64,000 bases of DNA from Acidobacteriota bacterium (lineage in GTDB: Bacteria > Acidobacteriota > Blastocatellia > RBC074): NCBI GenBank assembly GCA_031423495.1, contig JANPFP010000001.1, positions 32,030 to 96,029 of the forward strand, given 5' to 3'. The notes below the pieces were generated by a model. The model was given only the letters and a program-made list of their open reading frames with translations, made no database searches and was not told the origin of the DNA. This document shows, in pieces, positions 31,174 to 64,000 of the stretch (within the stretch, counting starts at the first letter, position 1; each line of letters begins with the position of its first letter). The position numbers and the translations under genes were made by a program.

Positions 31174-31224
31174 ACGCTCTTCCCCGCTGTCGAAATGCAC
31201 AGCGGCCTCCGTTCATCGCGCATG

Positions 31225-32028: not shown

Positions 32029-32165
32029 CTACCTGTTTGCGGCTTTTGACGCAGTTGGCCGTGCTAATTGCGCACAATCCCCCACCACCAAAGAGGCATA
32101 TCAATTGCTCATCATCAGCCGACGGATACATCACTGGATGCACCACAACTACGAGGAGCAATACG

Positions 32166-36284: not shown

Positions 36285-37082
36285 ATGAGCTTACGCAAAA
36301 CCCTGAATCTGCCCAAAGAACACGGCGCGTGGGCGATGTTGTATGTGTCCTTCGTGCTGGGCGTGTTAGTCGCCGGTCGCATCAACCTGCCTGTCGCCTT
36401 GTTGTTGCTGACCGTCACCGCACTGTTCATCTCGCGCGAATCGCTCTTGATCTGGTGGCGTGCGCATCGGCGCGGACGTTCTGCACCTGACGCCGCGCGC
36501 TTGTTGCTGATTTATTTTTCGCTCGCTGCTGTGGGAGGGCTGTGGCTGTTATTCGGTCATCGGCTGTGGTGGCTTGCGCTGTTGGGATTGTTCGGTTTGG
36601 GATTGCTGATTCTCAACGGCAATCAGGGCGCGCAATTGGCGGATCGTTCGTTGCGCAATGAGTTGCTGGCGATTGTCGGCTTAACGCTGACCGCGCCGGC
36701 GGCTTATTACGCAGCGAGCGGTTTATGGAACGCGCAGACCATCTGGCTCTGGGCGTTGAGTTCAACCTATTTCATCAGCAGCGTTTTTTACATCAAGTTG
36801 CGCGTGGCGCGGTTGCATCCGCAAGGGCAAGACGCGGCGTTGCAGGCCGGGCGTCATTGCCTCCTTTACCATTCGTTTCTGTTGAGCGCGCTTTTACTGC
36901 TCTGGCTCACCGGTAGCTTGCCGTTATTCGCGCTGGTCGCGTTCGCGCCCGCCGTCGCGCGCGCCTTCTGGAGCCTGATCAAGCCTGTACAACGCATCAA
37001 CCTGACGCGCGCCGGTATTTTCGAAATCGCGTATTCGCTCATTTTTCTCACCTTCATCGCGCTCTCATTCCGGTGGCATTAA
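36285..37082 (+). CDS. YwiC-like family membrane protein
   Basis: 265-aa polytopic membrane protein beginning MSLRKTLNLPKEHGAWAMLYVSF; immediately upstream of PFOR. Confidence 0.5.
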   Translation: MSLRKTLNLPKEHGAWAMLYVSFVLGVLVAGRINLPVALLLLTVTALFISRESLLIWWRAHRRGRSAPDAARLLLIYFSLAAVGGLWLLFGHRLWWLALLGLFGLGLLILNGNQGAQLADRSLRNELLAIVGLTLTAPAAYYAASGLWNAQTIWLWALSSTYFISSVFYIKLRVARLHPQGQDAALQAGRHCLLYHSFLLSALLLLWLTGSLPLFALVAFAPAVARAFWSLIKPVQRINLTRAGIFEIAYSLIFLTFIALSFRWH

Positions 37083-37084
37083 CC

Positions 37085-40000
37085 ATGAACAAACCTCTTG
37101 TCACACTCGACGCCAACGAAGCCGTAGCGCATGTGGTTTATCGCCTCAATGAAGTCATTGCGCTTTATCCGATCACGCCTTCGTCGCCGATGGGCGAATG
37201 GGCTGATGCGTGGGCGACAGCGGGTACGCCGAACCTCTGGGGCACGGTTCCCGCCATCGTTGAAATGCAAAGCGAAGGCGGCGCAGCGGGCGCGATTCAC
37301 GGCGCTCTGCAAACCGGCGCGTTGGCGACGACGTTCACCGCGTCGCAAGGGCTGTTGTTGATGATTCCGAATATGTACAAGATCGCGGGCGAACTCACGC
37401 CCGCCGTCTTGCACGTAGCCGCGCGCGCACTGGCCGCGCAAGGACTTTCGATTTTCGGCGACCACAGCGATGTGATGGCGGCGCGCGCGACGGGTTTCGG
37501 CATGCTTTGTTCCGCGTCGGTGCAAGAGGCGATGGACTTTGCGCTGATCGCGCAAGCCGCCACGCTCGAGGCGCGCATCCCGTTCATTCATTTCTTCGAC
37601 GGCTTTCGCACTTCGCACGAAGTCGCCAAAGTAGAGTTACTCAGCGAAGACGAGATGCGCGCGATGATTGATTTGGATTTGGTATTCGCGCATCGGCAAC
37701 GTGCGTTGTCGCCCGACCATCCCGTCATTCGCGGTACGGCGCAAAACCCGGACGTTTATTTTCAGGCGCGCGAAACCGTCAATCCGTTTTATCTCGCTTG
37801 CCCAAACATCGTGCAAAACGCGATGGATCGTTTCGCGCAACTCACCGGTCGCCGCTATCAACTGTTTGAATATCACGGCGCACCCGATGCCGAGCGCGTG
37901 ATCGTGTTGATGGGTTCGGGCGCTGAAGCCGCGCACGAGACGGTTGATTACCTGAACGCGCGCGGCACGAAAGTCGGTGTGTTGAAAGTGCGTTTGTATC
38001 GTCCTTTCGACGCGCAGCGATTCGTCGCGGCCTTGCCCGCTACGACTAAAGCCATTGCCGTGCTTGACCGCACGAAAGAGCCGGGCAGTGCGGGCGAACC
38101 GCTTTATCAGGATTGCCTGACCGCTTTATATGAAATCGCGGGGCACGAATTCGCTTGGCCCGCGATGCCGCGCGTGGTCGGAGGTCGTTACGGCCTTGCG
38201 TCCAACGAATTCACGCCCGCGATGATCAAGGCGGTCTTCGATAACCTCGCGCTCACGCAACCTAAAAATCATTTCACCATCGGCATCAACGACGACGTGA
38301 CGCATACGAGTTTGCCTTTTGATGACAGCTTTTCGACCGAGCCTGACAATGTCGTGCGCGCGTTGTTTTACGGCCTCGGCTCTGACGGCACGGTGGGCGC
38401 GAATAAAAATTCGATCAAGATCATCGGCGAGAATACGGCGAATTATGCGCAGGGTTATTTCGTTTACGATTCCAAAAAATCCGGCGCGATGACGGTCTCG
38501 CATCTGCGCTTCGGGCCGCAGCCGATTCGTTCGTCTTATCTCATCACGCAAGCCAATTTCGTCGCCTGCCATCAACCGATTTTTTTGGAACGTTACGACA
38601 TGGTTGCGCCGCTCAACGCGGGCGGTACTTTTTTGCTGAACGCACCTTGGAAAGCAGACGAAGTTTGGGACCACCTGCCGCGCGCAATGCAGCAACAAAT
38701 TATCGCCAAGCACATCAGGCTTTACGCGATTGACGCGAACAAGGTTGCGCAAGCCAGCGGTATGGGCAATCGCATCAACACCGTGATGCAGGTGTGTTTT
38801 TTCGCGCTCTCAGGCGTGCTGCCTAAAGACGAAGCCATCGCCGCCATCAAACACGCGATTGAAAAAAGCTACGCAAACAAGGGCGATGAAATGGTGGCGA
38901 TGAACATCAATGCTGTAGACCAAACCATGTCGCAACTTTTTGAAGTCACCGTGCCTGCGCAAACCAGCAGCCTATTCGAATTGCCGCCGCCGGTCGCTCA
39001 GACCGCGCCGCCATTCGTGCGCGACGTGCTGGGCATGATGATCGCGGGACGCGGCGATGAATTGCCCGTGAGCGAGTTGCCGTGTGACGGCACTTATCCG
39101 AGCGGCACGGCGCGTTGGGAAAAACGCAATCTGGCGTTGGAGATTCCCGCGTGGGATTCGCAAGTCTGCATTCAATGCGGCAAGTGCGCGATGGTGTGTC
39201 CGCACAGCGTGATTCGCATCAAGGTTTACGATGAGAAAGAGCTTGCCGCCGCACCGGTGACGTTCAAAGCCTGCGACGCCAAAGACCGCGAGTGGCACGG
39301 GATGAAATACACCATTCAGGTCGCGCCCGAAGATTGCACCGGCTGCGGCATTTGCGTAGACGTTTGCCCCGCCAAAAACAAAACCCAAACGCGCCTCAAG
39401 GCTTTGAATATGACGCCGCAACCGCCGTTGCGCGCGGCGGAACGCGACAACTGGGATTTCTTTTTGACGCTGCCCGAAATGGATCGCCGCCTGGTGAAAA
39501 TCTCGAACATCCGCCAGCAACAGTTGCAGGAACCGCTGTTTGAATTTTCAGGCGCGTGCGCGGGCTGCGGCGAAACGCCTTACATCAAGCTGGTCACTCA
39601 ATTGTTCGGCGACCGCACGCTCATCGCCAACGCGACGGGCTGCTCTTCGATTTATGGCGGCAATCTGCCTACGACGCCTTACACGATGAACGCCGACGGG
39701 CGCGGGCCGGCGTGGGCGAATTCACTCTTTGAAGACAACGCCGAATTCGGCCTGGGCTTTCGCGTATCACTCGACAAACAAAAAGAGTTCGCTACGCAGT
39801 TGTTGCAACGATTGTCGCAAATCGTCGGCGATGAATTGACGCGCGGCTTGCTCACGGCTGACCAACACGACGAAGCTGGTATTTATGAACAGCGCGAGCG
39901 TGTGGCTTTGTTAAAAGAGAAACTGCGCGGTGTTGATTCCGTTGAAGCGCGGCAGTTGCTGCAACTGGCCGACCTGCTGGTTCGCAAGAGCGTGTGGATC

Positions 40001-40672
40001 ATCGGTGGCGATGGCTGGGCTTATGACATTGGCTTCGGCGGACTCGATCACGTAATGGCGACAGGGCGCAACGTCAACATCCTCGTACTCGACACCGAAG
40101 TTTATTCCAACACGGGCGGACAGATGTCGAAAGCTACGCCACGCGGCGCTGTCGCCAAGTTCGCGGCGGGGGGTAAACCTGGGCCGAAAAAAGACCTGGG
40201 CTTGATGGCGATGACTTACGGCAACGTTTATGTCGCCCGCGTAGCGATGGGCGCGCGCGATGAACATACGCTGAAAGCCTTTCTCGAAGCGGAAGCTTAC
40301 GACGGGCCATCGCTCATCATTGCTTACAGCCACTGCATTGCGCACGGCATCAATATGACGACCGGCATGCAGAATCAGAAAGCGGCGGTGGACTCAGGGC
40401 AATGGCTGCTCTATCGCTTCCATCCTGACCGCGCACAGCAAGGCGAGAATCCGCTGCAACTCGATTCGCGCGCGCCCAAAATTCCACTCGAGCAATACCT
40501 CTATCGGGAAAACCGTTTCAAGATGTTGACCAAGAGTCAGCCTGAACAAGCGCGGCAATTGTTGAAAGAAGCACAGGCCGATGTTTATTCGCGCTGGCAT
40601 TTGTATGAATACCTCGCCGCGCGCCAGCCAGAACACCAGAAGCCGGAACCCAAATCCACGGGGGCGCAATGA
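37085..40672 (+). CDS. nifJ: pyruvate:ferredoxin (flavodoxin) oxidoreductase, homodimeric PFOR
   Basis: 1196 aa; N-terminal [28 protein letters not shown]; two 4Fe-4S motifs [12 protein letters not shown] and [12 protein letters not shown]; TPP domain [16 protein letters not shown]. Confidence 0.95.
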
Positions 40673-41804: not shown

Positions 41805-42704
41805 TTACCTGACAACCTCTACCGAACAATGCGCACGTGCTGCGACGGCGGAAGAAACGCTGCCGAGCAGGATGCGGTCAAGCCTTCCCATCCCGTGCGA
41901 GCCGACGAAGATGCAATCAGCACCCCAGCGTTCAGCTTCGTTGACAAGCAACTGTTTGGGGTCGCCTTGCTTCATCAAATGCGTAACGCGCAGGTTGGCA
42001 CCTTTCAGCCGGTTGGCAGCTTTTTCGATGGCGGCGGTGATGCGTTCGTTTTCTTCGGCGATCCACTGCGACATCGGAGTGATCACGCCTTGTTCGTTAA
42101 GCGCGTTGCGAACGCCTTGGGAGGCGAGCGTCCAGTTCGCCGCGACGATCATCGCTTCGTCATCGGATGACCAGTGGCGGCGCGCGAGTGTTTGCACCAT
42201 TTCATCGGCGCACTCTGAACCGTCTACGCCAACGACTAAACGCAAAGGCTGACCAGGCTCTTTGTCATTGTCTCGTGCAACGCGTACCGAGCAGCGCGCG
42301 TGTTGCAACACGCCGTGCGAGACGCTGCCGAAAAAGAAACGGCCCAACGCGGTGCGTCCGTGCGAACCCAGCACGAACAAGTCGGGCTGCCATTCATCGG
42401 CGCGCCACACCAGTGAACTCACGGGCGAACCGGTCACGGCTTCGGCGTGTACGTGCCATTCGGGGAAAAGCGTTTTCACTACGTTTTGCGCTTCGTGCGC
42501 GAGTTGCAAGGCTTCGTCTTGATGCTTGCTCTCTTCGGCGGGAAAAGCCGTATCTACGCCGCCGTAGCTGGCAGGTAATGGAATCCATGATTCCGCTACG
42601 GACACAACGCGCGCCTCGACTTTGCGCGGCAAGCCCGCGCGTTGCAGATCAACCAACGCAGCTTCCGCGCAAGCCGAACCGTCATAACAAATCAGAATTT
42701 TCAT
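41805..42704 (-). CDS. universal stress protein, tandem UspA domains
   Basis: [17 protein letters not shown]...[36 protein letters not shown] and second module. Confidence 0.85.
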
Positions 42705-42790
42705 TTTGCCTCCTACCATCGAAACAAGTCAGGCAAACAGCCTGGCTCACGATTACTTAATCACTAACGCTGAACTGCGTTCGCTGAAGA

Positions 42791-50951: not shown

Positions 50952-52121
50952 TTAGTTGTTCTGCCGACGCCTTATCACGACCAGCTTGCCGCCAATCTTG
51001 GCATGCTTGCGATAGCCGAGCAGGTGACAAATTTCGATGACAAACCAACGAGCAATGCGCGTGTCAATCACCAGTGAGTTTTCATCCTCCATCACACGGC
51101 TTACGCCAGGCCACCATGCAAGAGTTCGATCTATGCCGAATTTTCGTAACCAAGCCGCCAGTTTCAACCACAACGGCTTAACGGGGCGAATCAGAAAGAA
51201 ACCGTCTTCACCCTGTGCCTGATAGAGCGGCATAAAAAGCCAGCTCCGCTCAGGCGCGCGCACTTCGCCTTTGCGTTCGGTTGCAAGCAGAATGCCGCGC
51301 TCCACTTCCTGAAAATTGACGTAACCCGGTTTCATCACGAATTCATCCTCAGGTTTGATCGCATGGCGATAACGAACTTCAAAAAACGACGGTAAGCTGC
51401 GCCGTGCTTCTATCAGGGTACGACATTGGGCGCGCCAGTGAGGCACTGCTTGACGTGGCAAACAGCCCGCCGTCACCAGCGTAATCCAGATAGCGGCTTC
51501 ATGATTTTTCAATGCCGAAGCCGAATGGTGCTGCCCGGCCTCAAAACCGAGCGCGGCGTGACCAAGGTCGTTTATGTAATTGAGCAGCGTACCTTCAATG
51601 CTTTCTTCCAGACCGAGAATAATAGGTGTGCCGAGTGCTTGTGCGAACCGGCGATTCGCCAGGGTGTCGCTGATCAAACCAAAGGGCGAACCAGCCGACG
51701 AGGTCGTATGCAAATCAAGAAAGATGGCTTGGCTGAATTTGCCAGCTAACTGAGCTTCGATTACCGCCAGCAATTCGTGCTGTTCTTTACTCTCAGCGGT
51801 TTCGATTTCTCCTAAAATGCCTTCCTTGAGTTGATAAACTCGGCTTGGCACCCACATACGATTTAAGTCGAAATCAATAAATCGCTGGCCCCGATACAAT
51901 GCTGCCACGTTGCCGGCAAGGGCGACGAGTTTGCCGTTGAAAGGCGGATGATGCTGTTGCATATGACGCAATACGTTTTGCAACGCCAGCACGCCGGCTG
52001 GTTCGTTGCCATGCATGCCGCCTGTGCAAACTACCAATGGCCCAAAAACTGTGCCGCCATAACTTCCCAAGCGCCGTTGGAACTGAGCCTCGATCTCTTT
52101 GCTTTCTCTCACAGCTAACAT
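50952..52121 (-). CDS. succinylglutamate desuccinylase/aspartoacylase family protein
   Basis: Zn-binding CTGGMHGNEPAG and downstream H/E residues of the AstE/AspA family. Confidence 0.7.
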   Translation of the reverse strand: MLAVRESKEIEAQFQRRLGSYGGTVFGPLVVCTGGMHGNEPAGVLALQNVLRHMQQHHPPFNGKLVALAGNVAALYRGQRFIDFDLNRMWVPSRVYQLKEGILGEIETAESKEQHELLAVIEAQLAGKFSQAIFLDLHTTSSAGSPFGLISDTLANRRFAQALGTPIILGLEESIEGTLLNYINDLGHAALGFEAGQHHSASALKNHEAAIWITLVTAGCLPRQAVPHWRAQCRTLIEARRSLPSFFEVRYRHAIKPEDEFVMKPGYVNFQEVERGILLATERKGEVRAPERSWLFMPLYQAQGEDGFFLIRPVKPLWLKLAAWLRKFGIDRTLAWWPGVSRVMEDENSLVIDTRIARWFVIEICHLLGYRKHAKIGGKLVVIRRRQNN

Positions 52122-52247
52122 CGAATGAACCTTACCACCTCTCTTTTCTCGGTTGTCTGCAAACACAATGCCCAACTCATTTTGCGGACTTCTGCTCAAT
52201 GAATTTGCCTTTCTGAATGCAAATTGCGCGGAATCTCCCAATAAATG

Positions 52248-52264
52248 CTGGCATCTGATTTGCT
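52248..52264 (+). promoter_or_regulatory. candidate sigma-54 promoter cTGGCATctgatTTGCT upstream of pentaheme cytochrome
   Basis: GG-N10-GC; ~65 nt upstream of the ATG at 52328. Confidence 0.5.
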
Positions 52265-52327
52265 AGCTTTCGCCATATATCCATTTGAAAAATTCGCTCA
52301 CCTGTTGGGTAGCAAAGGAGAAACATC

Positions 52328-53137
52328 ATGTTCAAACGATTGATCGTATTAGTTGCATTGCTGCCGGGTATATTCATGCTCGCCTCCAACCAACTTGAAA
52401 AAGCGGCAGCTCAGGATGTATTGGCTGCCTTCAAAGGCAATAATTGTGTCACCTGTCACGTCAGGTTGACTGCGCCATACAAAGTAACTTCGCGCTATGC
52501 TGAATGGCACATCTCAACGCACATGGATAAAAAAATTGGCTGCGAGAAATGTCATGGCGGAGACGCTGCGGTAGCGGATGCAGCTAAAGCTCATGTCGGT
52601 GTTCAATCAGCGACAAATCCAGACAGCAAATTGCACGCAAAGAATCTGGCGACGACCTGCAATGCCTGCCACAAAGAAATCACCAGCTCATTCGTCGAGA
52701 GCAAGCACTATCAAAATTTGACTGGCGCCGGACTTGGGCCGAGTTGCATTACCTGCCACGGGCATATGGCTTCTGAAGTGATTTATACGCCCGCCCAAAC
52801 CGCCAAACTTTGCGCCAGTTGCCATGATTCAACGAACGCGCTGATGCCCAAACGCCCTGAAATTCCCGGCAAAGCTGAGGTGACGATGCAAGCCATCCGT
52901 CGCGCCAATATGGTTACGCTTTGGGCTGAGAGATTGGTGAATGAAGCCAAGGAAAAAAAGATGGAGATCGCGGATGCTGAAAAAGAAATGAAGATCGTCC
53001 GCGCCATGATGGCCGAATCTGTGATCGCCTGGCACAGCTTCAACTTGGATGTTGTGCAAAGAAAAGCTGACGCTGCATTCGAAACCGGCACGAAGTTAAA
53101 AGACGAATTGCGCGCCAAGCTTTATCCGAACCGCTAA
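52328..53137 (+). CDS. membrane-anchored pentaheme c-type cytochrome
   Basis: 5 CxxCH (CVTCH, CEKCH, CNACH, CITCH, CASCH); N-terminal TM/signal anchor; paralog at 62313..63110. Confidence 0.8.
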   Translation: MFKRLIVLVALLPGIFMLASNQLEKAAAQDVLAAFKGNNCVTCHVRLTAPYKVTSRYAEWHISTHMDKKIGCEKCHGGDAAVADAAKAHVGVQSATNPDSKLHAKNLATTCNACHKEITSSFVESKHYQNLTGAGLGPSCITCHGHMASEVIYTPAQTAKLCASCHDSTNALMPKRPEIPGKAEVTMQAIRRANMVTLWAERLVNEAKEKKMEIADAEKEMKIVRAMMAESVIAWHSFNLDVVQRKADAAFETGTKLKDELRAKLYPNR

Positions 53138-53199
53138 TGACTCAATTAGCCTGCGGTTATTTGCGACCACTTCGCACTCTCTGCCACCTACAAACTAAG

Positions 53200-53245
53200 C
53201 ACAGCCAAACCATTTGGCGCGTGGTTTGGCTGTGTTCAATTTTAG
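53200..53245 (+). terminator. rho-independent terminator: 13-bp perfect stem cacagccaaacca / tggtttggctgtg plus U-tract
   Basis: read directly; 60 nt after the cytochrome stop. Confidence 0.7.
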
Positions 53246-53316
53246 CCAACCAAAAGCCGATTCCTTACATTGAGAAATCGCTTGCGGAATAGTCCCCAAC
53301 TTTGCCTTTTTCGCGG

Positions 53317-53332
53317 TGGTACGAGTGTTGCA
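53317..53332 (+). promoter_or_regulatory. candidate sigma-54 promoter TGGTACgagtgTTGCA upstream of decaheme cytochrome gene
   Basis: matches TGGCAC-N5-TTGCA at 14 of 16 positions; ~85 nt upstream of the ATG at 53416. Confidence 0.55.
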
Positions 53333-53415
53333 CTCCCCGTAGTCGAACGACTCAATTGAGTCAAAATCCGCAGCAATTATCCTTTTGCTGTAACTCTTGG
53401 ATGAGGTACTCATAA

Positions 53416-54462
53416 ATGAAAGCAATCAAACTCATCTGCGTTGTATTTTTTGGACTGGGCGTATTACTGCTGGCACTTTCGCCACGCATTGCCCAGTTCT
53501 CGTTATTCAACCGTTCTGTCGTGACTGCTAAGGCTTTACCACCTGACGACTTGAGCAAATACGTTGGCAGCGATTCGTGCGCAGAATGCCACGGAGCCGA
53601 GGTCGCCCGTTATGAACTGACGGCGCACAGCAAAACCAAACTCATCAGTGACAAGGTGAATTTGCGCGGTTGCGAATCGTGCCACGGCGGCGCGCGCGAT
53701 CACGTAGCCTTTTATCTGGACATTCAAAAAGCGAACGAAGCGGGCAAGGAAGCCGAGGCGGAAAAGTTAATGAACGATACCGTGAAAGCTGCGGCGGCCT
53801 CGCTATCTTCGTTCAAGAACATGCCTGCCGCGCAGGCCACGGCGACTTGTTTGAAATGCCACGAAGGCACGCAAGGCCGCAGCGAAGAACGCTTCAATTA
53901 CCGACGCGGCGAACACGCGCGACACGGCGTTTCGTGCAACGATTGTCACTCTTCGCACGAACCCAAACGCACTGAGTTTCTGTTAAAAGCGCCTGAGCCG
54001 GGCTTGTGTTACACCTGCCACGCCGAACAGAAAGCCTCGTTCGCCAAACCTTTCCATCACAAAGTGCCCGAAGGCGGCATGAACTGTTCTGATTGCCACA
54101 ATCAGCACGGCGGATTCGCGGGCAAGTCGTTGCGCAATTCGGTCAACGGCGATTCGGCTTGCGTGAAATGCCACGCCGATAAACAGGGGCCGTTCGTGTT
54201 TGAGCATGCACCGGTCAAAGTCGAAGGCTGTCAGGCTTGCCATACGCCGCACGGCTCGACCAACCCGAAATTGCTGACGCGCAACGTCGTCAGGTTCCTG
54301 TGCCTTGAATGCCACTCGAATACACCTGAGTTGACGGGCGACGGAGCCGGGCTGGGTACGCAATCGCCGACGGGGCACGACCTGACACAACCGCGTTATC
54401 AAAATTGCACGGTCTGCCACATTGACATTCACGGCTCAAACAAAGAGCGGTTCTTCCGCTAA
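53416..54462 (+). CDS. periplasmic decaheme c-type cytochrome, MtrA/MtoA/PioA-like
   Basis: 348 aa with exactly 10 CxxCH (CAECH, CESCH, CLKCH, CNDCH, CYTCH, CSDCH, CVKCH, CQACH, CLECH, CTVCH); signal peptide; followed by a large OM beta-barrel gene. Confidence 0.8.
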
Positions 54463-54480
54463 GAGGAAAGGAGGCTGACA

Positions 54481-56622
54481 ATGAATATTCAAAGTAAATC
54501 AATGCAACGGTGGCTCTCCTGCTTGTTCGTGGGAGCCTGCACAACACTTTGCTTCTCCGGTGGCGCATGGGCGCAATCCGTCGAGAAGGCTGAAACGAGC
54601 CAGCAAGCACGTGAGGCTGACAGCGAACTCGAACGCGCCAAAGCCATCGTCAACAAACCCAAAGAGAACAAACCCGTAAAGACCGAAACAGGCCGTACGT
54701 GGGGCGTTTATTCGACGACCAGTTCGCTGGAAGTCGGCTATCGCTTCGTCAATGCGCGCGGCAGCGAAGCACGTTATCTGTCGGACGTGAATGTGCGCGA
54801 TGGTTTGCGCGTGCTGGAATCCACTGTGGATATGCGCGCGCGACCGGGAACTGGTTTGCTCTTCGATCACATGCGCGCCGAAGTACACAACGCGGGCGGC
54901 GATCAAAGTCAGAGCTTTGCGTTGCGTATGGACAAAACCAAATGGTATCGCTTCGATAGCAACGTCAGGCGGTTTAATTATTATCGTTCGCCGGGGCCGA
55001 ATTTCGCGTTGGGCTTTCGCGATTACGATTTGCGGCAACAGGTGTCTGATTACAGCTTGCGGTTGTTGCCGCAACGCGCCGTGCGCTTCAACGTGGGTTA
55101 TGCCCGCAGCATGGCGAAAGGCCGTTATAACCCGACCTACAGCTTTCAACGCGACATCTTTCAGTTGTTCGGCGATACGCGCTGGGAAGCCAACGATTAC
55201 CGGCTCGGAATGGACGCCACTTATCGCAAGTGGGATTTTAACGTAGAGCAACTTTATCGCACCTTCCGTAACGATCCCGACATCAACTCACGACCGGGCG
55301 GCGATTTGGGTTTCAACCCGACGGACGGCGGCAGACTTACGCTGCTTGATCGGGCGACGCCACAACGTTCGACGGCGGCGGTCATTCGCGGCAGTGTGCG
55401 CGGCAGTGTGGCGGAACGCGTGCATGTCGTGTTACGCGGCTTGCACGATGAAGAGCGAATGCGCGCGGCTTATTACGAAATTGCCAGCGGCAGAAACAAC
55501 AACAACGTTGCCATGCCGAGTTACGTGCTGACGCTGCCCGCTCCCGGCGCGAATGTCACTAGGCCGAACAGCCGCGTAGACGCCGCTGTCAGTTTCGACA
55601 TCAATGATCATCTGACCTTGAGCAATACGTTTGGCTATACCGCGTTCAAGATTCTCGGCAACACCGACGTGACGGCGACGACCGTGTTGCAACCCGCGAC
55701 GGGGCCGCCAACGACTACGACGACGCGGCAAGTGTTCACGAATTACATCACCGACCTGACTTCCTATTCCAACACGCTGGCGTTGGACATCAGTTATGGC
55801 CGCAAGTTCAGCGCCAATTTAGGCTGGCGCGCCATGCAACGTGATGTTTCGCTGGCGAATAACTTTCTCACGGCGACCAGTCCGATTTCGGCCACCAATC
55901 CGCAAATCGGGAGCGAAAGCGAATCTATCGGCACGCACGCTTTCATCGGCGGTCTGCGGGTGCGTCCGACTGAGAACACCAGCTTTATGTTCGACATCGA
56001 ACAGGGGCAGAACAACAACTCGTTCGTGCGTATCAATCCACTTGATTACCTGCGCATCCGCGCGCGCGCGCAAGTGAAAGCGACTGATAAGTTAGGTTTC
56101 ACAGGCACATTCACTTCGACGGATCGCACCAATCCTACGCCGCAGGTGAACAACGAATCTGACGCGCGTAGTTACACGGTGGCAGTGAATTGGGAACCCA
56201 AAGAGCGCGTGTGGCTTGATGCCGGATACGACTATCACGACCTGTTTGCGACGGGGAACATTCTTTACACGCTCAATGTCGGCGGCACGAACCAACGCAT
56301 TTCGGGCCGGTCGCTTTATTACGCGCGCATCAATTCAGTTTATTTGAACACGCGGTTGGGGTTGAGCAAACGTCTTGATCTGATGATGTTCTATTACTAC
56401 ATCATGGATCGCGGCATTCCGTCGGTCAGTTTGGGGCCGAACGACAACGCCAATGCGCTGCCACTCAGACGCCACAATCCTGAAGCCCGCCTCGCTTATC
56501 GCTTCACCAACCACGTGACCGGCAATCTGAGTTACCGACATTACAGCTACAACGAGCGCGATTTCTTCGTGCAGGATTATCGTGCAAACATCCTCACGAG
56601 CAGTCTGCGTTTCACTTTTTAA
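54481..56622 (+). CDS. MtrB/PioB-like outer membrane beta-barrel (porin partner of decaheme cytochrome)
   Basis: 713 aa, signal peptide, alternating amphipathic strands, C-terminal ...LRFTF aromatic terminus; size and synteny match MtrB/MtoB. Confidence 0.6.
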   Translation: MNIQSKSMQRWLSCLFVGACTTLCFSGGAWAQSVEKAETSQQAREADSELERAKAIVNKPKENKPVKTETGRTWGVYSTTSSLEVGYRFVNARGSEARYLSDVNVRDGLRVLESTVDMRARPGTGLLFDHMRAEVHNAGGDQSQSFALRMDKTKWYRFDSNVRRFNYYRSPGPNFALGFRDYDLRQQVSDYSLRLLPQRAVRFNVGYARSMAKGRYNPTYSFQRDIFQLFGDTRWEANDYRLGMDATYRKWDFNVEQLYRTFRNDPDINSRPGGDLGFNPTDGGRLTLLDRATPQRSTAAVIRGSVRGSVAERVHVVLRGLHDEERMRAAYYEIASGRNNNNVAMPSYVLTLPAPGANVTRPNSRVDAAVSFDINDHLTLSNTFGYTAFKILGNTDVTATTVLQPATGPPTTTTTRQVFTNYITDLTSYSNTLALDISYGRKFSANLGWRAMQRDVSLANNFLTATSPISATNPQIGSESESIGTHAFIGGLRVRPTENTSFMFDIEQGQNNNSFVRINPLDYLRIRARAQVKATDKLGFTGTFTSTDRTNPTPQVNNESDARSYTVAVNWEPKERVWLDAGYDYHDLFATGNILYTLNVGGTNQRISGRSLYYARINSVYLNTRLGLSKRLDLMMFYYYIMDRGIPSVSLGPNDNANALPLRRHNPEARLAYRFTNHVTGNLSYRHYSYNERDFFVQDYRANILTSSLRFTF

Positions 56623-56634
56623 TAACCCAATTCG

Positions 56635-56661
56635 GTAGGGCAGGTTACTAACCTGCCCTAC
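56635..56661. repeat. palindromic element GTAGGGCAGGTT-acta-AACCTGCCCTAC, copy 2, between beta-barrel and monoheme cytochrome genes
   Basis: perfect 12-bp arms; followed by aatttcggaggaaaatccATG. Confidence 0.6.
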
Positions 56662-56679
56662 AATTTCGGAGGAAAATCC

Positions 56680-57033
56680 ATGAATTCGACTGCCAAAAAA
56701 ACTGTGGCCGCACTCTTAGCCACCGTAGCTTTGACACTCTCTTTTTATGCGTCCCTGTCGGCTCCTGAGGCTGAAGCTTTCCAGAGCGTCAAGAGTTTGT
56801 ACGCCTCGAAATGTGCGGTTTGCCACGGTAACGACGGAAGCGCGAACACAGCCAAAGGCAAGGAATTGAAAGTTCGTAACTTGAAATCTGAGGAATTCAA
56901 AAAAATGCCCGACGCCAAAGCTATGGAAGTTATGCTCAAGGGCAAGGGCAAGATGGAAGGCTATGAAAAAACTCTCGGCAAGGAGAAGTGCGAACAATTG
57001 CTCGCCTATTGCCGCGAGCTTTCAAACAAATAA
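56680..57033 (+). CDS. periplasmic monoheme class-I cytochrome c (MtoD-like)
   Basis: signal peptide; single CAVCHG; ~117 aa. Confidence 0.7.
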   Translation: MNSTAKKTVAALLATVALTLSFYASLSAPEAEAFQSVKSLYASKCAVCHGNDGSANTAKGKELKVRNLKSEEFKKMPDAKAMEVMLKGKGKMEGYEKTLGKEKCEQLLAYCRELSNK

Positions 57034-57161
57034 GCTGTTACCTGCATCGGAATAGATACGGGTTGGTGAGTTGTTGCGTTCCATCCTGGCAGTCGCGCAA
57101 TTCGCCAGCCCTTTTATTATTTGCCGATTATTTCTGCCGATTATTTCTGGAGAACATTGCT

Positions 57162-57791
57162 ATGGGAGCTAATATAACCATTGTGATTGCCGTCATCCTG
57201 TTCAGCATCGCTCTGATTGCCTGGCTGATCTGGCGTCCGTCAATAACCGCCACGCGCGGAGGCAAGATGCTGGCCTTCGTTACGTTGCTGGTGTTTCCAC
57301 TGTTAGCCGGTGGCCTGGGCGTCAATGAACAACTGGCGCATTCCAAGACGACCAATTTCTGTCTGTCGTGCCACGTGATGGAAGATTACGGCAAGAGTTT
57401 GCACGTAGATGATCGCAGCCTCGTCCCCGCCATCCATTATCAGAACAACCTCGTGCCGCGCGACAACGCCTGTTTTACCTGCCACACCGATTACACGATG
57501 TTCGGCGATATGAATGCGAAGTTGCGCGGCTTGAAACACGTATACGCTTATTACATTGGCAAGCCGCAGCAGCCGATCAAGTTGTATACGCCTTACAACA
57601 ACCGCGAATGTTTGCATTGCCATTTGGGCGCGCGCTCTTACCAGGAATCAGAAGCGCACACCAAAAAGCCGCAACGTCTTGAACAAATGCGGCTCAATCA
57701 ACTGAGTTGCAGCACTACGGATTGCCATAACAACGTCCACAACATCAAAACGCTGAAAGAGGCGTCCTTTTGGAAGGAGTCCGGCAAATGA
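57162..57791 (+). CDS. NapC/NirT family membrane-anchored multiheme cytochrome (CymA-like quinol dehydrogenase)
   Basis: N-terminal TM helix; CLSCH, CFTCH, CLHCH plus an atypical CSTTDCH; spacing typical of NapC/NrfH. Confidence 0.7.
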   Translation: MGANITIVIAVILFSIALIAWLIWRPSITATRGGKMLAFVTLLVFPLLAGGLGVNEQLAHSKTTNFCLSCHVMEDYGKSLHVDDRSLVPAIHYQNNLVPRDNACFTCHTDYTMFGDMNAKLRGLKHVYAYYIGKPQQPIKLYTPYNNRECLHCHLGARSYQESEAHTKKPQRLEQMRLNQLSCSTTDCHNNVHNIKTLKEASFWKESGK

Positions 57792-58012
57792 ATCACCCAC
57801 TCACAAAAATCGAAAAACGGATTCGCCTTTCCGGCTTGCTGATTATCGCAGGGCTGTTAGTGGAACTGATTACGTTGCGCTGGTCTCATCCAACTGCGTT
57901 TCTGTTCTTCCTGCTGCTGGGCGGTACACTGATGGCGGCAGGCATTCTGATTTATCTTTTCTCTCTGGCTTCGATTGGCGCGACCGATGAGCGATCCGAT
58001 CTTGCCAAATAG
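57788..58012 (+). CDS. small membrane protein (74 aa)
   Basis: two TM helices; ATG overlaps the CymA-like stop (aaatgaatc). Confidence 0.4.
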   Translation: MNHPLTKIEKRIRLSGLLIIAGLLVELITLRWSHPTAFLFFLLLGGTLMAAGILIYLFSLASIGATDERSDLAK

Positions 58013-59487: not shown

Positions 59488-59504
59488 CTGGCATCGCACT
59501 TGCA
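59488..59504 (+). promoter_or_regulatory. candidate sigma-54 promoter cTGGCATcgcacTTGCA upstream of USP
   Basis: TGGCA-N..-TTGCA with canonical spacing; ~25 nt upstream of the ATG. Confidence 0.5.
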
Positions 59505-59527: not shown

Positions 59528-59977
59528 ATGAAAATTCTTGTAGCAGTAGATGGTTCAGCAAGCAGTCAAGCCGCAGTGGCTTCGGTCGCGGCGCGTCCGT
59601 GGCCGACGGGCAGCGAAATCAAAATTCTGGCAGTCGCCGAGTTGCACATTATTCCTACGCAGGAGTTTGGCATGTTGCCGCCGAGCTATTACGACAGCGC
59701 GGCGGATGCGGCGCATACGTTGGCGCAGGCTGCGGTCAAAGCGGCAACGGACGTAATCCAACATCGCACGACGACCGGTTTAACGGTGGCGACCGATATC
59801 AAGACGGGCTTCGCCAAATCGGTCATTCTCGATGAAGCCGAAAAGTGGGGCGCTGATTTGATCGTATTGGGTTCGCACGGATACAAAGGCTTGCAACGCT
59901 TTTTGCTCGGCTCGGTTTCGCAAGCGGTCGCCGCGCATGCGACGTGTTCGGTCGAAATCGTGCGGGTGAAAAAGTAA
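59528..59977 (+). CDS. universal stress protein, single domain
   Basis: MKILVAVDGSASSQAAV...LIVLGSHGYKGLQRFLLGSVSQAVAAHATCSVEIVR. Confidence 0.85.
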   Translation: MKILVAVDGSASSQAAVASVAARPWPTGSEIKILAVAELHIIPTQEFGMLPPSYYDSAADAAHTLAQAAVKAATDVIQHRTTTGLTVATDIKTGFAKSVILDEAEKWGADLIVLGSHGYKGLQRFLLGSVSQAVAAHATCSVEIVRVKK

Positions 59978-60132: not shown

Positions 60133-61305
60133 ATGGCGCGCATTGTCATTCTCGGCGGGGGCTTCGCCGGTGTCGTCACCGCCGAAGCCCTCGCGCAACA
60201 ACTGGGCAGCGAACACGAAATCACGCTGATTGCGCGACAACGCGAATTCACGTTTTATCCGGCGCTGGTGCGGCTGGCCTTCGACCAATGTCATGTTGAA
60301 GACGTGTTCTTTGATCTCGAGGGTTCATTGCTTTCGCAACGCGTCAAGTTCATCCAGGCCGAGATTCTCTATCCTGACCCACTCAGCGAAACGGTCGTAA
60401 TTCGTCAAGCAGAGCGTGAACGCGCTGTGCCTTACGATTATTTGGTGATGGCGTTGGGGCGACGTCTGGCGACCCGCGAAATCAAAGGCTTCGACGCGCA
60501 CGCGCATCATCTGTTGTCAGTAGGTGCGGCGTTGCGCTTGGGCGAAGCCGTCAAACATTTTCACGCAGGCAACGCCATCATCGGATATTGCCCCGAAGCG
60601 CGGCTGGTCGTACCGGTGTTTGAAACGGCCTTCGCCTTAGATCGCGTATTGCGCGAACGCGGCGAACGTGAGGCTACGCAAATCAGCATCTTGAGTCCGG
60701 GCAAGCTCGGCGAATTTTTAGGCGGTGAGGAATTGCTGCCCGCTTTGCAAAAGGCGCTAGCGAAACACGACATCACTGTAACGACTGAGTTTCCGGTTGA
60801 CTTGATCGGTGACCGCGAAATCTGGGCGCGCGACAATCGGCGAATGCCTTACGATTTGTTGATGTTGATTCCGCCCTTCGCCGGGCCGGATGAAGTGGCT
60901 TATCGCGGCTTGACCGACGAGACCGGCTTCGTCCGCGTAGACCGACAGATGCGCGTGCGCAGCGCGCGCAACGTTTACGCCGCCGGAGATTGTGTGAGTT
61001 TGATCGGGCCGAAGATGGGCCACCTCGCCGTGCTGCAAGCCGATGTCGTCGCCGCCAACCTCATCGCCGAACTCAGTGGACGCGAACCCGAAACCCGCTA
61101 CGAACACGAACTAACGCTCATCATCAACGAAGATGGCGAGGATTCACTTTTCTTTCACAAGGAACTTTGGGATGGCGGGCTGGGGACGATTCGACAAGGC
61201 CGTTTTTGGAGTTGGGCGAAACAAGCCCATACGAATTACTGGGCGCGAATGCACAAACTCAGTCCGATTGAAAAAGCTAACCACCCTTCTGAAAGCGACT
61301 CCTGA
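60133..61305 (+). CDS. FAD-dependent pyridine nucleotide-disulfide oxidoreductase (sulfide:quinone oxidoreductase / NDH-2-like)
   Basis: Rossmann ILGGGFAGV motif, second FAD/NAD site YAAGDC; 390 aa. Confidence 0.65.
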   Translation: MARIVILGGGFAGVVTAEALAQQLGSEHEITLIARQREFTFYPALVRLAFDQCHVEDVFFDLEGSLLSQRVKFIQAEILYPDPLSETVVIRQAERERAVPYDYLVMALGRRLATREIKGFDAHAHHLLSVGAALRLGEAVKHFHAGNAIIGYCPEARLVVPVFETAFALDRVLRERGEREATQISILSPGKLGEFLGGEELLPALQKALAKHDITVTTEFPVDLIGDREIWARDNRRMPYDLLMLIPPFAGPDEVAYRGLTDETGFVRVDRQMRVRSARNVYAAGDCVSLIGPKMGHLAVLQADVVAANLIAELSGREPETRYEHELTLIINEDGEDSLFFHKELWDGGLGTIRQGRFWSWAKQAHTNYWARMHKLSPIEKANHPSESDS

Positions 61306-61414: not shown

Positions 61415-62284
61415 TCATCCGCGCACCACTTCAACAGAACATTCTGCGCGTGCCGCTACGCCCGCCGAAACGCTGCCGATCATGATGCGTTCAAAGCGTC
61501 CCAGACCGCGTCCGCCGATGAAGATCACATCGGCTTGCCAACGCTCTGCTTCGTCACAAAGCAGCTTTTTCGGTTCTTCGTCTTTCACAACTGACGAAGC
61601 GTATAAGCCCGTCGTACTCAGCAATGCTTCGCCGTGTTGCATCATGTCTGAGATGCGGGTGCGTTCATCGGCGAGCCATTTTTCGAGTGTCAACATTGTT
61701 TGTTGCGATGAGGCGGGCAACGTATAAGGCGCACCGTTCACCAGTCGCACCTCGCTGCCTTGCGGCCAGTGGCGCGCGGCGACCGCCTTGATGGCGGCTT
61801 CCGCGCCCGGCGAACCGTCTACGCCAACGATGATGCGGGCGGGTTCATCGGGCTGGCGCGCGTGGGTGCGAATGCGAGCGACGTGAACGGAACAACGCGC
61901 TTCGTGCAAAACCTTTTGCGAGACGCTGCCGAAAAAGAAGCGCCCCAACGCCGTGCGTCCGTGTGAACCGATGACGATCAAGTCGGGCTGCCAAACATCG
62001 GCTTCGGCCAGCAAGACGCTGGCGGGCGAACCAAACTCGGTGCGCGCGTCTATGTTCCATTCAGGAAAAGCGAGCTCCAGCGCGGTGCGCGCACGACGCG
62101 CGAGCGCCAGGTTTTCTTGATCGTGCGTAATGCCCTGATACGTCTCAAGCGCAGAAGGCGGCGGCAGCCACGTTTCGGAGACCGCCAACACGAGCGCTTC
62201 GGCGTGGAGCGGCAACCCCGCGCGCGGCAAATCAGCCAACGCGGCATCGGCGCATTCAGAGCCGTCATAAGCGATTAGAATTTT
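61415..62284 (-). CDS. universal stress protein, tandem UspA domains
   Basis: MKILIAYDGSECADAAL...[36 protein letters not shown] and second module; 13 nt downstream of the cytochrome gene. Confidence 0.85.
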   Translation of the reverse strand, partial: KILIAYDGSECADAALADLPRAGLPLHAEALVLAVSETWLPPPSALETYQGITHDQENLALARRARTALELAFPEWNIDARTEFGSPASVLLAEADVWQPDLIVIGSHGRTALGRFFFGSVSQKVLHEARCSVHVARIRTHARQPDEPARIIVGVDGSPGAEAAIKAVAARHWPQGSEVRLVNGAPYTLPASSQQTMLTLEKWLADERTRISDMMQHGEALLSTTGLYASSVVKDEEPKKLLCDEAERWQADVIFIGGRGLGRFERIMIGSVSAGVAARAECSVEVVRG

Positions 62285-62312
62285 CATCAGTTCTTTCATT
62301 TTGTTTTTACTC

Positions 62313-63110
62313 TCAACGTAGGTTCAGCTTTTGGCGCAAGGCATCGCGCGCTTTGACACCTTGCTGATAGGCGTTATCGGATTGCTTGCGTACGTTCGTT
62401 AAATCAAACGTATGCCAATTAATTTTTGCTTCGACCAATTGCCGCTCCGCCGTTTGCAGCGCAGCGCTTTCAGCTTCGTGCGGCAAATGGCGCTGTTCGG
62501 TTTGCGCCAACAATAGGTTCGCCCATAACACGACGGCGTTCGCGCGTTGCAACGCCGTCATGGTTTCAGCCGCTTGTTTGGGGATTTCAGGACGTGGCTG
62601 CAAGTAATTCAACGCGTCATGGCAACGCGCGCAGAGGTTGGCGGTTTCGTTGGGCGCGGTAATCACTTGCGTAGCCATATGCGCGTGGCAGGTGTTGCAA
62701 CTCGCCCCGATGCCGATTCCTTTCAGGTTTTGATAATGCTTGCTCTGAACAAAAGCCTTGACGATGTTCTGATGACAAGATGCGCACGTGGCGGGCTGGT
62801 TGCGGTAATGCAAGCGGCTGTCAGCGTGTGACGACGGGCGCATGCCGTAATGAGTTTTTTTCAGGTCGCGCGTCGTCGGATCGCCGCCGTGACATTTGTC
62901 GCACGTGACGCCTTTGGCTTGATGCCGCGAGAGTTGCCATTCATAAAAACGCGCGCTCAGTTGCAACGGCTCCTGCAATCCGCCGTGGCAACTGACGCAG
63001 GTGTTTTCGTCCGTCCAGGTTTGTTGAGCTTGTGGCGGACTGCTTGTCGTTGGCCAGCTCAAAACGCCACAAAAGCCTAATAACAGCCCTAATCGCCAGC
63101 GTCTTCGCAT
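62313..63110 (-). CDS. pentaheme c-type cytochrome (paralog of 52328..53137)
   Basis: CVSCH, CDKCH, CASCH, CNTCH, CARCH; signal peptide MRRRWRLGLLLGFCGVLSW; RBS gaggag. Confidence 0.8.
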   Translation of the reverse strand: MRRRWRLGLLLGFCGVLSWPTTSSPPQAQQTWTDENTCVSCHGGLQEPLQLSARFYEWQLSRHQAKGVTCDKCHGGDPTTRDLKKTHYGMRPSSHADSRLHYRNQPATCASCHQNIVKAFVQSKHYQNLKGIGIGASCNTCHAHMATQVITAPNETANLCARCHDALNYLQPRPEIPKQAAETMTALQRANAVVLWANLLLAQTEQRHLPHEAESAALQTAERQLVEAKINWHTFDLTNVRKQSDNAYQQGVKARDALRQKLNLR

Positions 63111-63132
63111 AAGATTACTCCTCAGAAAAAGT

Positions 63133-63159
63133 GTAGGGCAGATTCCCAACCTGCCCTAC
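63133..63159. repeat. palindromic element GTAGGGCAGaTT-ccc-AACCTGCCCTAC, copy 3, immediately upstream (minus strand) of the pentaheme cytochrome RBS
   Basis: 11-bp perfect arms gtgtagggcag / ctgccctacac. Confidence 0.6.
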
Positions 63160-63179: not shown

Positions 63180-63353
63180 CTATGCGAGGTGGCGCGCTTC
63201 GTGCCAGGCCAGATCGCATTCCTCGTGTCCGCAATGACAAGTCACATCGGGCAGGTTCGCGGCGTAGCGGCAAAAGTCGCTGCAATACTCGCCATCGAAT
63301 TCCGCCAGACAGTGGCACGTCGGATGGGCGCATACATCGGTTGGTTCAGTCAT
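63180..63353 (-). CDS. 57-aa Cys/His-rich metallothionein-like protein (below the 60-aa track cutoff)
   Basis: MTEPTDVCAHPTCHCLAEFDGEYCSDFCRYAANLPDVTCHCGHEECDLAWHEARHLA: 8 Cys, 6 His; YCSDFC resembles YCSEAC of the bacterial SmtA/BmtA family; TAATG coupling with the upstream gene. Confidence 0.5.
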   Translation of the reverse strand: MTEPTDVCAHPTCHCLAEFDGEYCSDFCRYAANLPDVTCHCGHEECDLAWHEARHLA

Positions 63354-63805
63354 TATGATTTTCGCTCCTCATCGCGCTGCCACCAGACGTGCGCGAGTTT
63401 GTTTTCGTGCGAAAAATCGTAGCGCGTCTTGCCGCTGAAAGCCTTTTCCAGCGCATGTCCCAGTCGTTGTGCCAGATGTTCGGTCGTCGTTGTGACGATC
63501 AGTTCGTTATCCTCGCCCTCTTCCCAATTCATAATGCGCGCGAGCGGATTGTCTTCGGCGGCGCGTTCGGCTTCGTTGGCGAGCAGGCGTTCGATTTCTT
63601 CGTAATGCTTGACGAGAAAGCCGCCCGAAAGATGTACGTAACCGTTCGGCACTGCGCCTCGAATCGCCTGACATGCCGGACAAACCACCGTCACCGGCGG
63701 GCGAAAATGCGGGTGCTTCTTGCTTTGGCTGTCGGGGTTGGGCCGCGACCAGCGGCGGTCGGCGTAAACATTCCCGCAATCGGCACACACTGCCGGTTCG
63801 CTCAT
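63353..63805 (-). CDS. zinc-ribbon protein (two CxxC pairs; NMD3-like N-terminal zinc ribbon?)
   Basis: VCADCGNV...VVCPACQAI; start MSEPAV. Confidence 0.45.
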   Translation of the reverse strand: MSEPAVCADCGNVYADRRWSRPNPDSQSKKHPHFRPPVTVVCPACQAIRGAVPNGYVHLSGGFLVKHYEEIERLLANEAERAAEDNPLARIMNWEEGEDNELIVTTTTEHLAQRLGHALEKAFSGKTRYDFSHENKLAHVWWQRDEERKS

Positions 63806-64000
63806 AGCGCGGCGCGTATGGTGGCGTCCGGCCTCGTGGTCTACGCGCTTGGTAAATGTTTGATTGCTGTAACATTTCTTCGTCTGCATAAAATCCTTTG
63901 CGTGGTGATACCTCAAAAGGCAAAACGAACGACAGAGCGACGACGATCATCCTCCCAGCAAACGCCGTTTCACATTCCTTCTCGCGGTTCGTCCCTCACA

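Follow-up and report, generated by a model that had tools for sequence, protein, structure and literature searches.

The closest described relatives of the locus reported here are the MtrCAB porin-cytochrome conduit of Shewanella (PDB 6R2Q) and the Mto clusters of Sideroxydans lithotrophicus ES-1, Gallionella and Dechloromonas. In ES-1, the locus tags run MtoD (2498), MtoA (2497), MtoB (2496), ImoA/CymA (2495) and PmcA (2494), and in Gallionella and Dechloromonas the corresponding set is MtoAB-MtoD-MtoC. For ImoA of Sideroxydans, an identity of 64% to NirT has been reported, MtoD is a bis-His cytochrome with a potential of +155 mV, and PmcA, a His/Met-ligated shuttle at -143 mV, is now thought to connect MtoA and ImoA. 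Within the Acidobacteria, candidate mtrA/mtrB genes have been reported in subdivisions 1, 3 and 6, and canonical MtrB/PioB proteins are annotated in metagenome-assembled genomes (MAGs) of Blastocatellia, so this kind of system is already known; CymA homologues were not found in Acidobacteria in a 2018 survey. Here, we describe a cluster of six genes, all on the forward strand, at positions 52328-58012 of a 64,000-nucleotide stretch of DNA (hereafter the window; assembly GCA_031423495.1, contig JANPFP010000001.1, positions 32,030 to 96,029) from a Blastocatellia (Acidobacteriota) genome of soil or sludge. We consider it likely that the cluster encodes an MtrAB/MtoAB-type porin-cytochrome conduit across the Blastocatellia outer membrane.

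With Shewanella MtrCAB, the cluster shares the family of its decaheme cytochrome, a barrel whose top structural match is MtrB, and the order of decaheme gene followed after a very short gap by barrel gene. It differs in having no MtrC/OmcA-type surface decaheme, in an inner-membrane partner that is not CymA, in an insertion of about 40 amino acids between hemes 2 and 3 of the decaheme relative to MtrA, and in a barrel that sequence searches do not connect to MtrB. With the Mto clusters, it shares the functional parts list and the lack of a surface cytochrome, but its gene order is different, its NapC-like protein is highly divergent, a pentaheme cytochrome and a 74-amino-acid protein are extra, and its host belongs to an acidobacterial lineage of heterotrophs. 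The original prediction, made from the window sequence, had described five consecutive same-strand genes in the Sideroxydans order mtoA-mtoB-mtoD-cymA. All five open reading frames are present on the forward strand where they were placed, and a sixth gene at 57788-58012 completes the set; the order is not that of Sideroxydans, because the ES-1 locus tags run otherwise. The coordinates of all features are collected in Table 1.

Table 1 Genes and sequence elements of the cluster and of a related gene nearby, in window coordinates
Feature	Position	Strand	Basis or remark
Sigma-54-type -24/-12 promoter-like site, TGGCAT-N5-TTGCT (TGGCATCTGATTTGCT)	52249..52264	+	64 nucleotides (nt) 5' of pentaheme start codon
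Pentaheme c-type cytochrome, 269 amino acids (aa)	52328..53137	+	5 CxxCH
Perfect 16-bp hairpin, then U-rich tract UUCAAUUUU	53198..53236	+	Between pentaheme and decaheme genes
Second sigma-54-type promoter-like site, TGGTAC-N5-TTGCA (TGGTACGAGTGTTGCA)	53317..53332	+	84 nt 5' of decaheme start codon
Decaheme c-type cytochrome, DmsE/MtrA/MtoA/PioA family, periplasmic, 348 aa	53416..54462	+	10 CxxCH; TIGR03508; 6r2q_A match
Outer-membrane beta-barrel, divergent MtrB/PioB-superfamily branch, predicted decaheme sheath, 713 aa	54481..56622	+	Profile-profile comparison; AlphaFold2 model
Perfect 12-bp hairpin GTAGGGCAGGTT-ACT-AACCTGCCCTAC	56635..56661	+	Between barrel and monoheme genes; read from sequence
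Monoheme class-I cytochrome c, signal peptide, predicted periplasmic carrier, 117 aa	56680..57033	+	1 CxxCH
NapC/NirT/NrfH-superfamily tetraheme, divergent, 209 aa	57162..57791	+	3 CxxCH and CSTTDCH (Cx4CH)
74-aa protein, two hydrophobic helices, motif WSHPTxFLFFL	57788..58012	+	Conserved in relatives
Pentaheme paralogue, 40% identity, 5 CxxCH	62313..63149	-	Likeness to the cluster pentaheme

The decaheme cytochrome and its outer membrane barrel

The decaheme is a true member of the DmsE/MtrA family. Exactly ten CxxCH motifs were counted, as had been claimed, and the protein scores 242.9 bits on TIGR03508, above the cut-off of 192.2, in an alignment that reaches from position 1 to position 257 of the 258-position model. 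In addition, a search of PDB sequences matched it to the MtrA chain 6r2q_A with an E-value of 4e-29, and the sequence carries a hydrophobic N-terminal signal. The barrel gene follows the decaheme stop codon after 18 nt, and its product shows both termini that had been noted for it, a signal-peptide-like N-terminus, which ends in AWA before Q, and a C-terminal LRFTF.

The barrel is a remote homologue of MtrB/PioB with an MtrB-like fold, as evidenced by structural and profile-profile comparison. An AlphaFold2 (AF2) model was built from the family alignment (predicted local distance difference test score, pLDDT, 74; predicted template modelling score, pTM, 0.62), and by two methods its best match among solved structures was MtrB (6r2q_B). 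Foldseek returned this match with an E-value of 4.6e-14 and template modelling (TM) scores of 0.63/0.69, followed by TonB-dependent receptors at about 0.4, and identity to MtrB in the structural alignments was about 13-14%. For profile-profile comparison, a set of 24 genuine PF11854 (MtrB_PioB) proteins was assembled, seeded from the canonical barrel of the related locus L007. With hhalign, the narrow barrel family aligned to this set with 98.2% probability (E 5e-14, 569 columns) and a 66-member sample of the wider family with 99.7% (E 3e-27, 646 columns), while reversed or block-shuffled versions of the MtrB/PioB alignment reached 41% at most. An alignment of canonical members was needed for this result, as comparison with one canonical barrel yielded a probability of only 19%. 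Profile-to-sequence searches from the narrow family to MtrB/PioB were insignificant (best E 0.014) and those from the wider family went down to E 1e-10; the homology is thus transitive, since such links arise only by way of the wider family.

This wider family is large. An exhaustive search with the barrel-family profile yielded 1,317 cluster representatives at E<=1e-3, 701 of them at E<=1e-10. PF11854 was touched weakly by 4 of the 66 sampled wider-family representatives, and ten representatives that were looked up were unnamed or "hypothetical". Among the 120 barrel homologues listed, none has a Pfam domain, those named by a source are called "hypothetical protein", and the named sources are all Blastocatellia or Acidobacteriota MAGs. 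Of two distant family members, L058 has a ten-heme cytochrome gene before it and L059 has no adjoining cytochrome gene.

Sequence identities within the decaheme also relate to the type of barrel with which it is encoded. The part of the protein bearing hemes 4-10 is 74% identical between orthologues paired with a window-type barrel, compared to 37% identical to the decaheme partner of a canonical MtrB/PioB protein in the same genome. This region therefore tracks barrel type, which fits physical pairing of the two proteins.

Two further observations concern these proteins. The first ~40 residues of the mature barrel (about 31-70; window 54574-54690; AQ-SVEKAETSQQ...) include the invariant positions A31, Q32, E35, K36, T39 and A53 and are modelled as a low-confidence helix outside the barrel; this segment may serve as a periplasmic docking or plug element for the decaheme. 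Separately, the two decahemes encoded in one operon of L007 (3319-4368 and 6957-7982; the contig is also L041) are mosaic in make-up. As far as heme 3, the two N-terminal parts share 58% identity with one another and 43-45% with the window orthologue, and the C-terminal parts share only 38%, a pattern that points to the 5' ends having undergone recombination or gene conversion.

Conservation of the cluster in related genomes

In total, 57 loci were gathered, 50 of them from GTDB species representatives, with a few representing one contig fetched twice. Synteny, whose absence would have counted against the original prediction, is strict: wherever upstream DNA is available (51 of 51 loci), the barrel gene is immediately preceded by the decaheme gene. 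In 40 loci, the barrel gene is directly followed by the monoheme gene, and the NapC-like and 74-aa genes are present downstream in about 30. Heme-motif counts are invariant among orthologues, at ten for the decaheme (53/53), five for the pentaheme (32/32) and one for the monoheme (47/47). Seven loci have the pentaheme, monoheme, NapC-like and small genes together at a distance of a few kb from the decaheme-barrel pair, which divides the system into an outer-membrane module and a periplasm/inner-membrane module.

A deeper branch shows a different inner-membrane component. In L001 and L003, the NapC-like gene is replaced by one for a 690-aa CbcL/MtoC-like protein with 11 CxxCH motifs and a b-type membrane domain, and in L001 this gene is followed by one for a 509-aa ImcH-like cytochrome. 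CbcL/MtoC- and ImcH-type proteins are quinol/quinone oxidoreductases already tied to extracellular electron transfer (EET) (PMC6295460).

The window-type system was also compared with canonical pairs from Acidobacteriota, in which the barrel is annotated by PGAP as "MtrB/PioB family decaheme-associated outer membrane protein". Both consist of a decaheme and a barrel, and the two occur in the same bacterial class and sometimes share a genome or even an operon. The canonical barrels are about 790-810 aa long and pass PF11854 and TIGR03509, unlike the window barrel; the canonical pairs at L060 and L061 are two genes alone, without the monoheme, NapC-like and pentaheme set, and decahemes of canonical pairs are only 37-40% identical to that of the window. 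In GCA_018268995.1, a canonical decaheme and PF11854 barrel pair is inserted within a window-type operon, and in GCA_035560235.1 the canonical pair stands alone on another contig. These two genomes show that the window-type system exists alongside canonical MtrAB as its paralogue instead of replacing it.

Twelve MAG records labelled "Heliomicrobium sp." or "Heliobacteriaceae" (Bacillota) also carry the barrel, with 55-78% identity to the Blastocatellia proteins and the same synteny (L010-L013, L015, L017, L019, L027, L029, L035, L048 and L057). These titles are almost certainly taxonomic mislabels.

Proposed electron path and competing explanations

In the arrangement that we infer, the decaheme would be exported to the periplasm and threaded through the MtrB-like barrel, such that its chain of ten hemes would span the outer membrane. 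On the periplasmic side, it would exchange electrons with the soluble monoheme and the pentaheme from the same cluster, and these carriers would reach the quinone pool via the two-helix NapC/NirT-type tetraheme and its 74-aa membrane partner. Transcription would start at the sigma-54 promoters before the pentaheme and decaheme genes.

Several findings weigh against this assignment. Neither Pfam nor NCBIfam, PF11854 and TIGR03509 included, gives the barrel a match at E<=1, a result that the original prediction had itself named as refuting and that formally refutes membership of the family it named; the fold and remote homology stand and the curated-model membership does not. The TIGR03509 test is a discriminating one, since the 799-aa canonical barrel of L007 passes it as a positive control (267.1 against a cut-off of 240.05). 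Searches of PDB sequences with the single barrel sequence or with a 32-sequence profile likewise gave no match, the structural evidence comes from an AF2 model of moderate confidence, and the 30 strand segments that DSSP assigns in that model leave the number of strands unsettled. The cluster encodes no MtrC/OmcA-type surface cytochrome, which leaves contact with solid acceptors unexplained. The gathered loci all come from MAGs of Blastocatellia/Acidobacteriota, and neither protein nor organism has been studied experimentally in any of them. Finally, gene content does not tell which way electrons flow, as reducers and Fe(II) oxidisers employ one and the same set of parts (decaheme, barrel, monoheme and a NapC-type or CbcL/MtoC-type protein).

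As to direction, our best guess gives outward flow an even chance and inward flow (Mto-like Fe(II) oxidation with electron uptake) a distinctly smaller one, with the rest going to a bidirectional system or another substrate. The low-oxygen context, the ImcH- and CbcL-like partners in relatives and the heterotrophic lineage point outward; the missing surface cytochrome and the Mto-like parts list point inward. In the outward case, which we hold with middling confidence, the conduit would discharge electrons onto Fe(III), Mn(IV) or humic-type acceptors outside the cell under oxygen limitation. The role of an Fe(II) oxidiser, implied by the original prediction, is not established. Under such a Mto/Pio-like scheme, electrons from extracellular Fe(II) would enter the periplasm, where the monoheme would pass them either towards a terminal oxidase or, by way of the NapC-like protein, into the quinone pool. 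The parts do mirror Mto clusters (decaheme, barrel and monoheme, with a NapC-type protein in ES-1 or a CbcL/MtoC-type one in Gallionella and Dechloromonas), an MtrC-type surface cytochrome is missing here too, and the lineage is largely aerobic (PMC5900883). However, neither the NapC-like protein nor the monoheme is an orthologue of its Mto counterpart (ImoA/CymA and MtoD, respectively), the surroundings look like a low-oxygen stress island with pyruvate:ferredoxin oxidoreductase and many universal stress protein (USP) genes, relatives carry ImcH-like genes so far known from outward-transferring bacteria, and no autotrophy or oxidase genes were seen in the window. Taken together, Fe(II) oxidation of this kind seems to us possible but rather unlikely.

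Two other explanations leave metals aside. The barrel could be an ordinary transport or assembly protein, such as a TonB-dependent receptor, an LptD-like protein or a generic porin, with the cytochromes serving a periplasmic respiratory pathway; the missing MtrB/PioB hidden Markov model (HMM) match, the significant but weaker fold matches to TonB-dependent receptors and the lack of a cytochrome gene next to L059 would all be accommodated. This is very improbable given that Pfam and NCBIfam searches found no plug, TonB-box or other transporter domain, that MtrB is clearly the top structural match, that the profile-profile homology to MtrB/PioB survives its negative controls, and that a decaheme gene adjoins the barrel in 51 of 51 loci, with a ten-heme gene preceding even the distant L058. 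A DmsEF-like conduit to an extracellular or outer-membrane terminal reductase encoded elsewhere, acting on dimethyl sulfoxide or another soluble oxidant instead of metals or humics, would agree with the decaheme family TIGR03508, which takes its name from DmsE, with a cluster that has no surface cytochrome, and with a molybdopterin oxidoreductase gene about 8 kb away in one relative. It too appears improbable, as neither the window nor, with any consistency, the set of 57 loci shows a molybdoenzyme or other reductase gene linked to the cluster. The preferred reading thus remains an MtrAB/MtoAB-type conduit.

Three identities were considered and set aside. A TonB-dependent receptor was rejected for the barrel in view of the absent plug and TonB domains and of a superposition much poorer than that with MtrB. 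The Pcc (OmbB-OmaB-OmcB) and Ext systems of Geobacter share the concept of a barrel with a periplasmic multiheme cytochrome, and relatives of the window cluster have CbcL- and ImcH-like inner-membrane cytochromes as well; in Pcc, however, the components are an octaheme, a surface lipoprotein cytochrome and a non-MtrB barrel, as opposed to a DmsE-family decaheme with an MtrB-like barrel, so that both cytochrome family and barrel type are wrong. A fragment of alternative complex III, suggested by a weak match of the decaheme to 6F0K, was dismissed because no ActB, ActC or ActF genes are present.

Members of the Blastocatellia are frequent in soils and in wastewater sludge, and as a rule they are regarded as aerobic heterotrophs. 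If the assignment is right, these abundant "aerobic" soil and activated-sludge bacteria would gain a route to extracellular respiration or Fe(II) use, and a conserved, regulated conduit would connect them with the redox cycling of iron, manganese or humics, or with survival once oxygen is exhausted. In the literature, we found no description of the barrel branch, the dedicated accessory set or the sigma-54 signature, only general mtrA/mtrB reports for other acidobacterial subdivisions. Tentatively, and with more doubt than conviction, we propose that the barrel represents a large unrecognised branch of the MtrB superfamily (the 1,317 representatives above, nearly all of which lack a family annotation), that in Blastocatellia it serves extracellular respiration or Fe(II) use together with a dedicated pentaheme, NapC variant and 74-aa subunit under sigma-54/low-oxygen control, and that EET is far commoner than surveys indicate. 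As the barrel escapes PF11854 and TIGR03509, metagenome surveys of EET genes relying on these models miss both this system and the wider family and probably under-count; iron-gene and annotation pipelines built on the MtrB/PioB models would overlook the branch as well. The main value of the present analysis lies in exposing this blind spot, which an HMM built from the barrel-family alignments would close. The cluster also offers components for study in their own right, namely a pentaheme with a helical ligand-bearing domain, the Cx4CH NapC variant and the 74-aa partner.

Accessory cytochromes and the 74-aa protein

The original prediction described the pentaheme as anchored by a transmembrane segment. 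Its five CxxCH motifs are present, but the anchor did not hold up: the alignment shows a hydrophobic stretch of roughly 16 residues followed by a conserved S/A-x-A before QD, which resembles a cleavable signal peptide, and the protein is probably soluble. It has partial matches to TIGR03508 and NF041028 (E about 4e-11, far under both cut-offs), and in the heme domain it is similar to the N-terminal half of MtrA/DmsE. In the AF2 model (pLDDT 79), helices span residues 178-265, and the C-terminal domain consists of three long helices with an invariant His236. No solved fold matched this model at E<1, the weak top matches being octaheme nitrite and sulfite reductases.

Additional pentaheme copies were observed in two places. 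The paralogue in the window (Table 1) probably starts at an internal Met codon near 63113, and the tandem-USP gene at 61415-62299 on the reverse strand begins 13 nt after it on the same strand, as if co-transcribed. By paralogy, this second pentaheme may be linked to the conduit. In L057, further pentaheme copies lie downstream of the cluster.

For the monoheme, a class-I cytochrome c with a single CxxCH was confirmed (Pfam Cytochrome_CBB3, 36.9 against a cut-off of 27), and the MtoD-like label was not. Its top PDB sequence matches were CcoP, Kuenenia c552 and c6 types, and MtoD (PDB 4XXL) was absent from its matches at E<=0.01. In 43 orthologues, the Met of a KG..KM motif is conserved, which suggests His/Met ligation, as in PmcA and in contrast to bis-His MtoD. 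Position beside a NapC-type gene and the likely ligation would place the monoheme nearer to PmcA than to MtoD.

The NapC/NirT assignment of the tetraheme is supported by a Cytochrom_NNT match in Pfam (40.4 against a cut-off of 24.1). It is a four-heme protein in which one of the four motifs is Cx4CH. The "CymA-like" label fared less well, with a TIGR02161 score of 33.7 bits falling far under the cut-off of 310.6 and no match found among PDB sequences. By inspection of the sequence, the N-terminus has two hydrophobic segments (residues about 5-24 and 36-54), where a CymA/ImoA protein would have a single membrane helix along with four canonical CxxCH motifs; orthologues are 60-80% identical, and the pattern of three CxxCH plus Cx4CH is present in 30 of 30. 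The protein is predicted to link the quinone pool to the periplasmic cytochromes. The ATG of the 74-aa gene overlaps its stop codon as ATGA, an arrangement indicating translational coupling, and the small protein, which has no Pfam or NCBIfam family match, is kept at 53-85% identity in 26 loci. It is probably the membrane partner of the NapC-like protein. Judged from their sequences, "CymA-like" and "MtoD-like" are only analogies, and the accessory proteins are analogues, not orthologues, of the Mto parts.

Promoter-like sites, hairpins and repeats

Both sigma-54 matches proposed at 52248 and 53317 were recovered (Table 1). One-mismatch matches in the window number 8, against 3.5 expected by chance. 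Conservation was surveyed in the 250 nt upstream of each gene, requiring at least 9 of 11 positions with GG and GC fixed, for which the background is 0.039 per 250 nt. Such motifs precede the pentaheme gene at 14 of 30 loci and the decaheme gene at 10 of 50, compared to none of 38 for the monoheme gene and none of 30 for the NapC-like gene. Given these conserved upstream motifs, sigma-54 control looks like a family trait. A simple sigma-70 scan found no promoter.

The terminator expected at about 53200, between the pentaheme and decaheme genes, takes the form of a perfect 16-bp hairpin with a U-rich tract downstream of it. It folds with a free energy of -25.5 kcal/mol (z = -4.5; none of 200 shuffles folds equally well), was missed by a simple terminator scan, and is likely an intrinsic terminator or attenuator. 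The 12-bp hairpin between the barrel and monoheme genes may act in mRNA stability or attenuation. Two perfect tandem copies of the 13-nt unit GCCGATTATTTCT, at 57123-57148 on the forward strand, closely precede the start codon of the NapC-like gene and could be a regulator-binding or translational element.

Genomic neighbourhood

The window contains at least seven USP genes, single and tandem, including those at 2660-3589, 30247-31200, 32037-33083, 41805-42719, 59528-59977 and 61415-62299. It also encodes pyruvate:ferredoxin oxidoreductase, a formate dehydrogenase alpha subunit, a BCAM0308 family protein (NCBIfam "lxa"), a sigma-54 activator and a PAS histidine kinase; for these non-USP genes of the island, the coordinates 37073-40672, 6040-8721, 63353-63916 and 9-2441 apply jointly. 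The lxa locus of Burkholderia cenocepacia is activated by low oxygen. In relatives, Crp/Fnr-type regulators and hemerythrin adjoin the cluster. We infer from these genes that the neighbourhood would be a low-oxygen response or stress island.

A third good sigma-54-type site (TGGCATCGCACTTGCA) lies at 59489-59504 on the forward strand, at a distance of 24 nt before the USP gene at 59528, and suggests that USP genes and the cytochrome cluster are under common sigma-54 control. Between USP genes and 2 kb from the cluster, a forward-strand gene at 60133-61305 encodes a flavoprotein resembling type III sulfide:quinone reductase (144.9 bits, under the 525-bit cut-off), which is a possible further link to the quinone pool.

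On the other side, an AstE/AspA-type gene (succinylglutamate desuccinylase/aspartoacylase family; 50952-52241, reverse strand) is divergently oriented beside the pentaheme gene. This linkage, which has no obvious connection to electron transfer, persists in many relatives, even where the pentaheme-monoheme-NapC module has moved off the decaheme-barrel pair (L007, L010, L015, L016, L022, L037, L043, L055 and L056).

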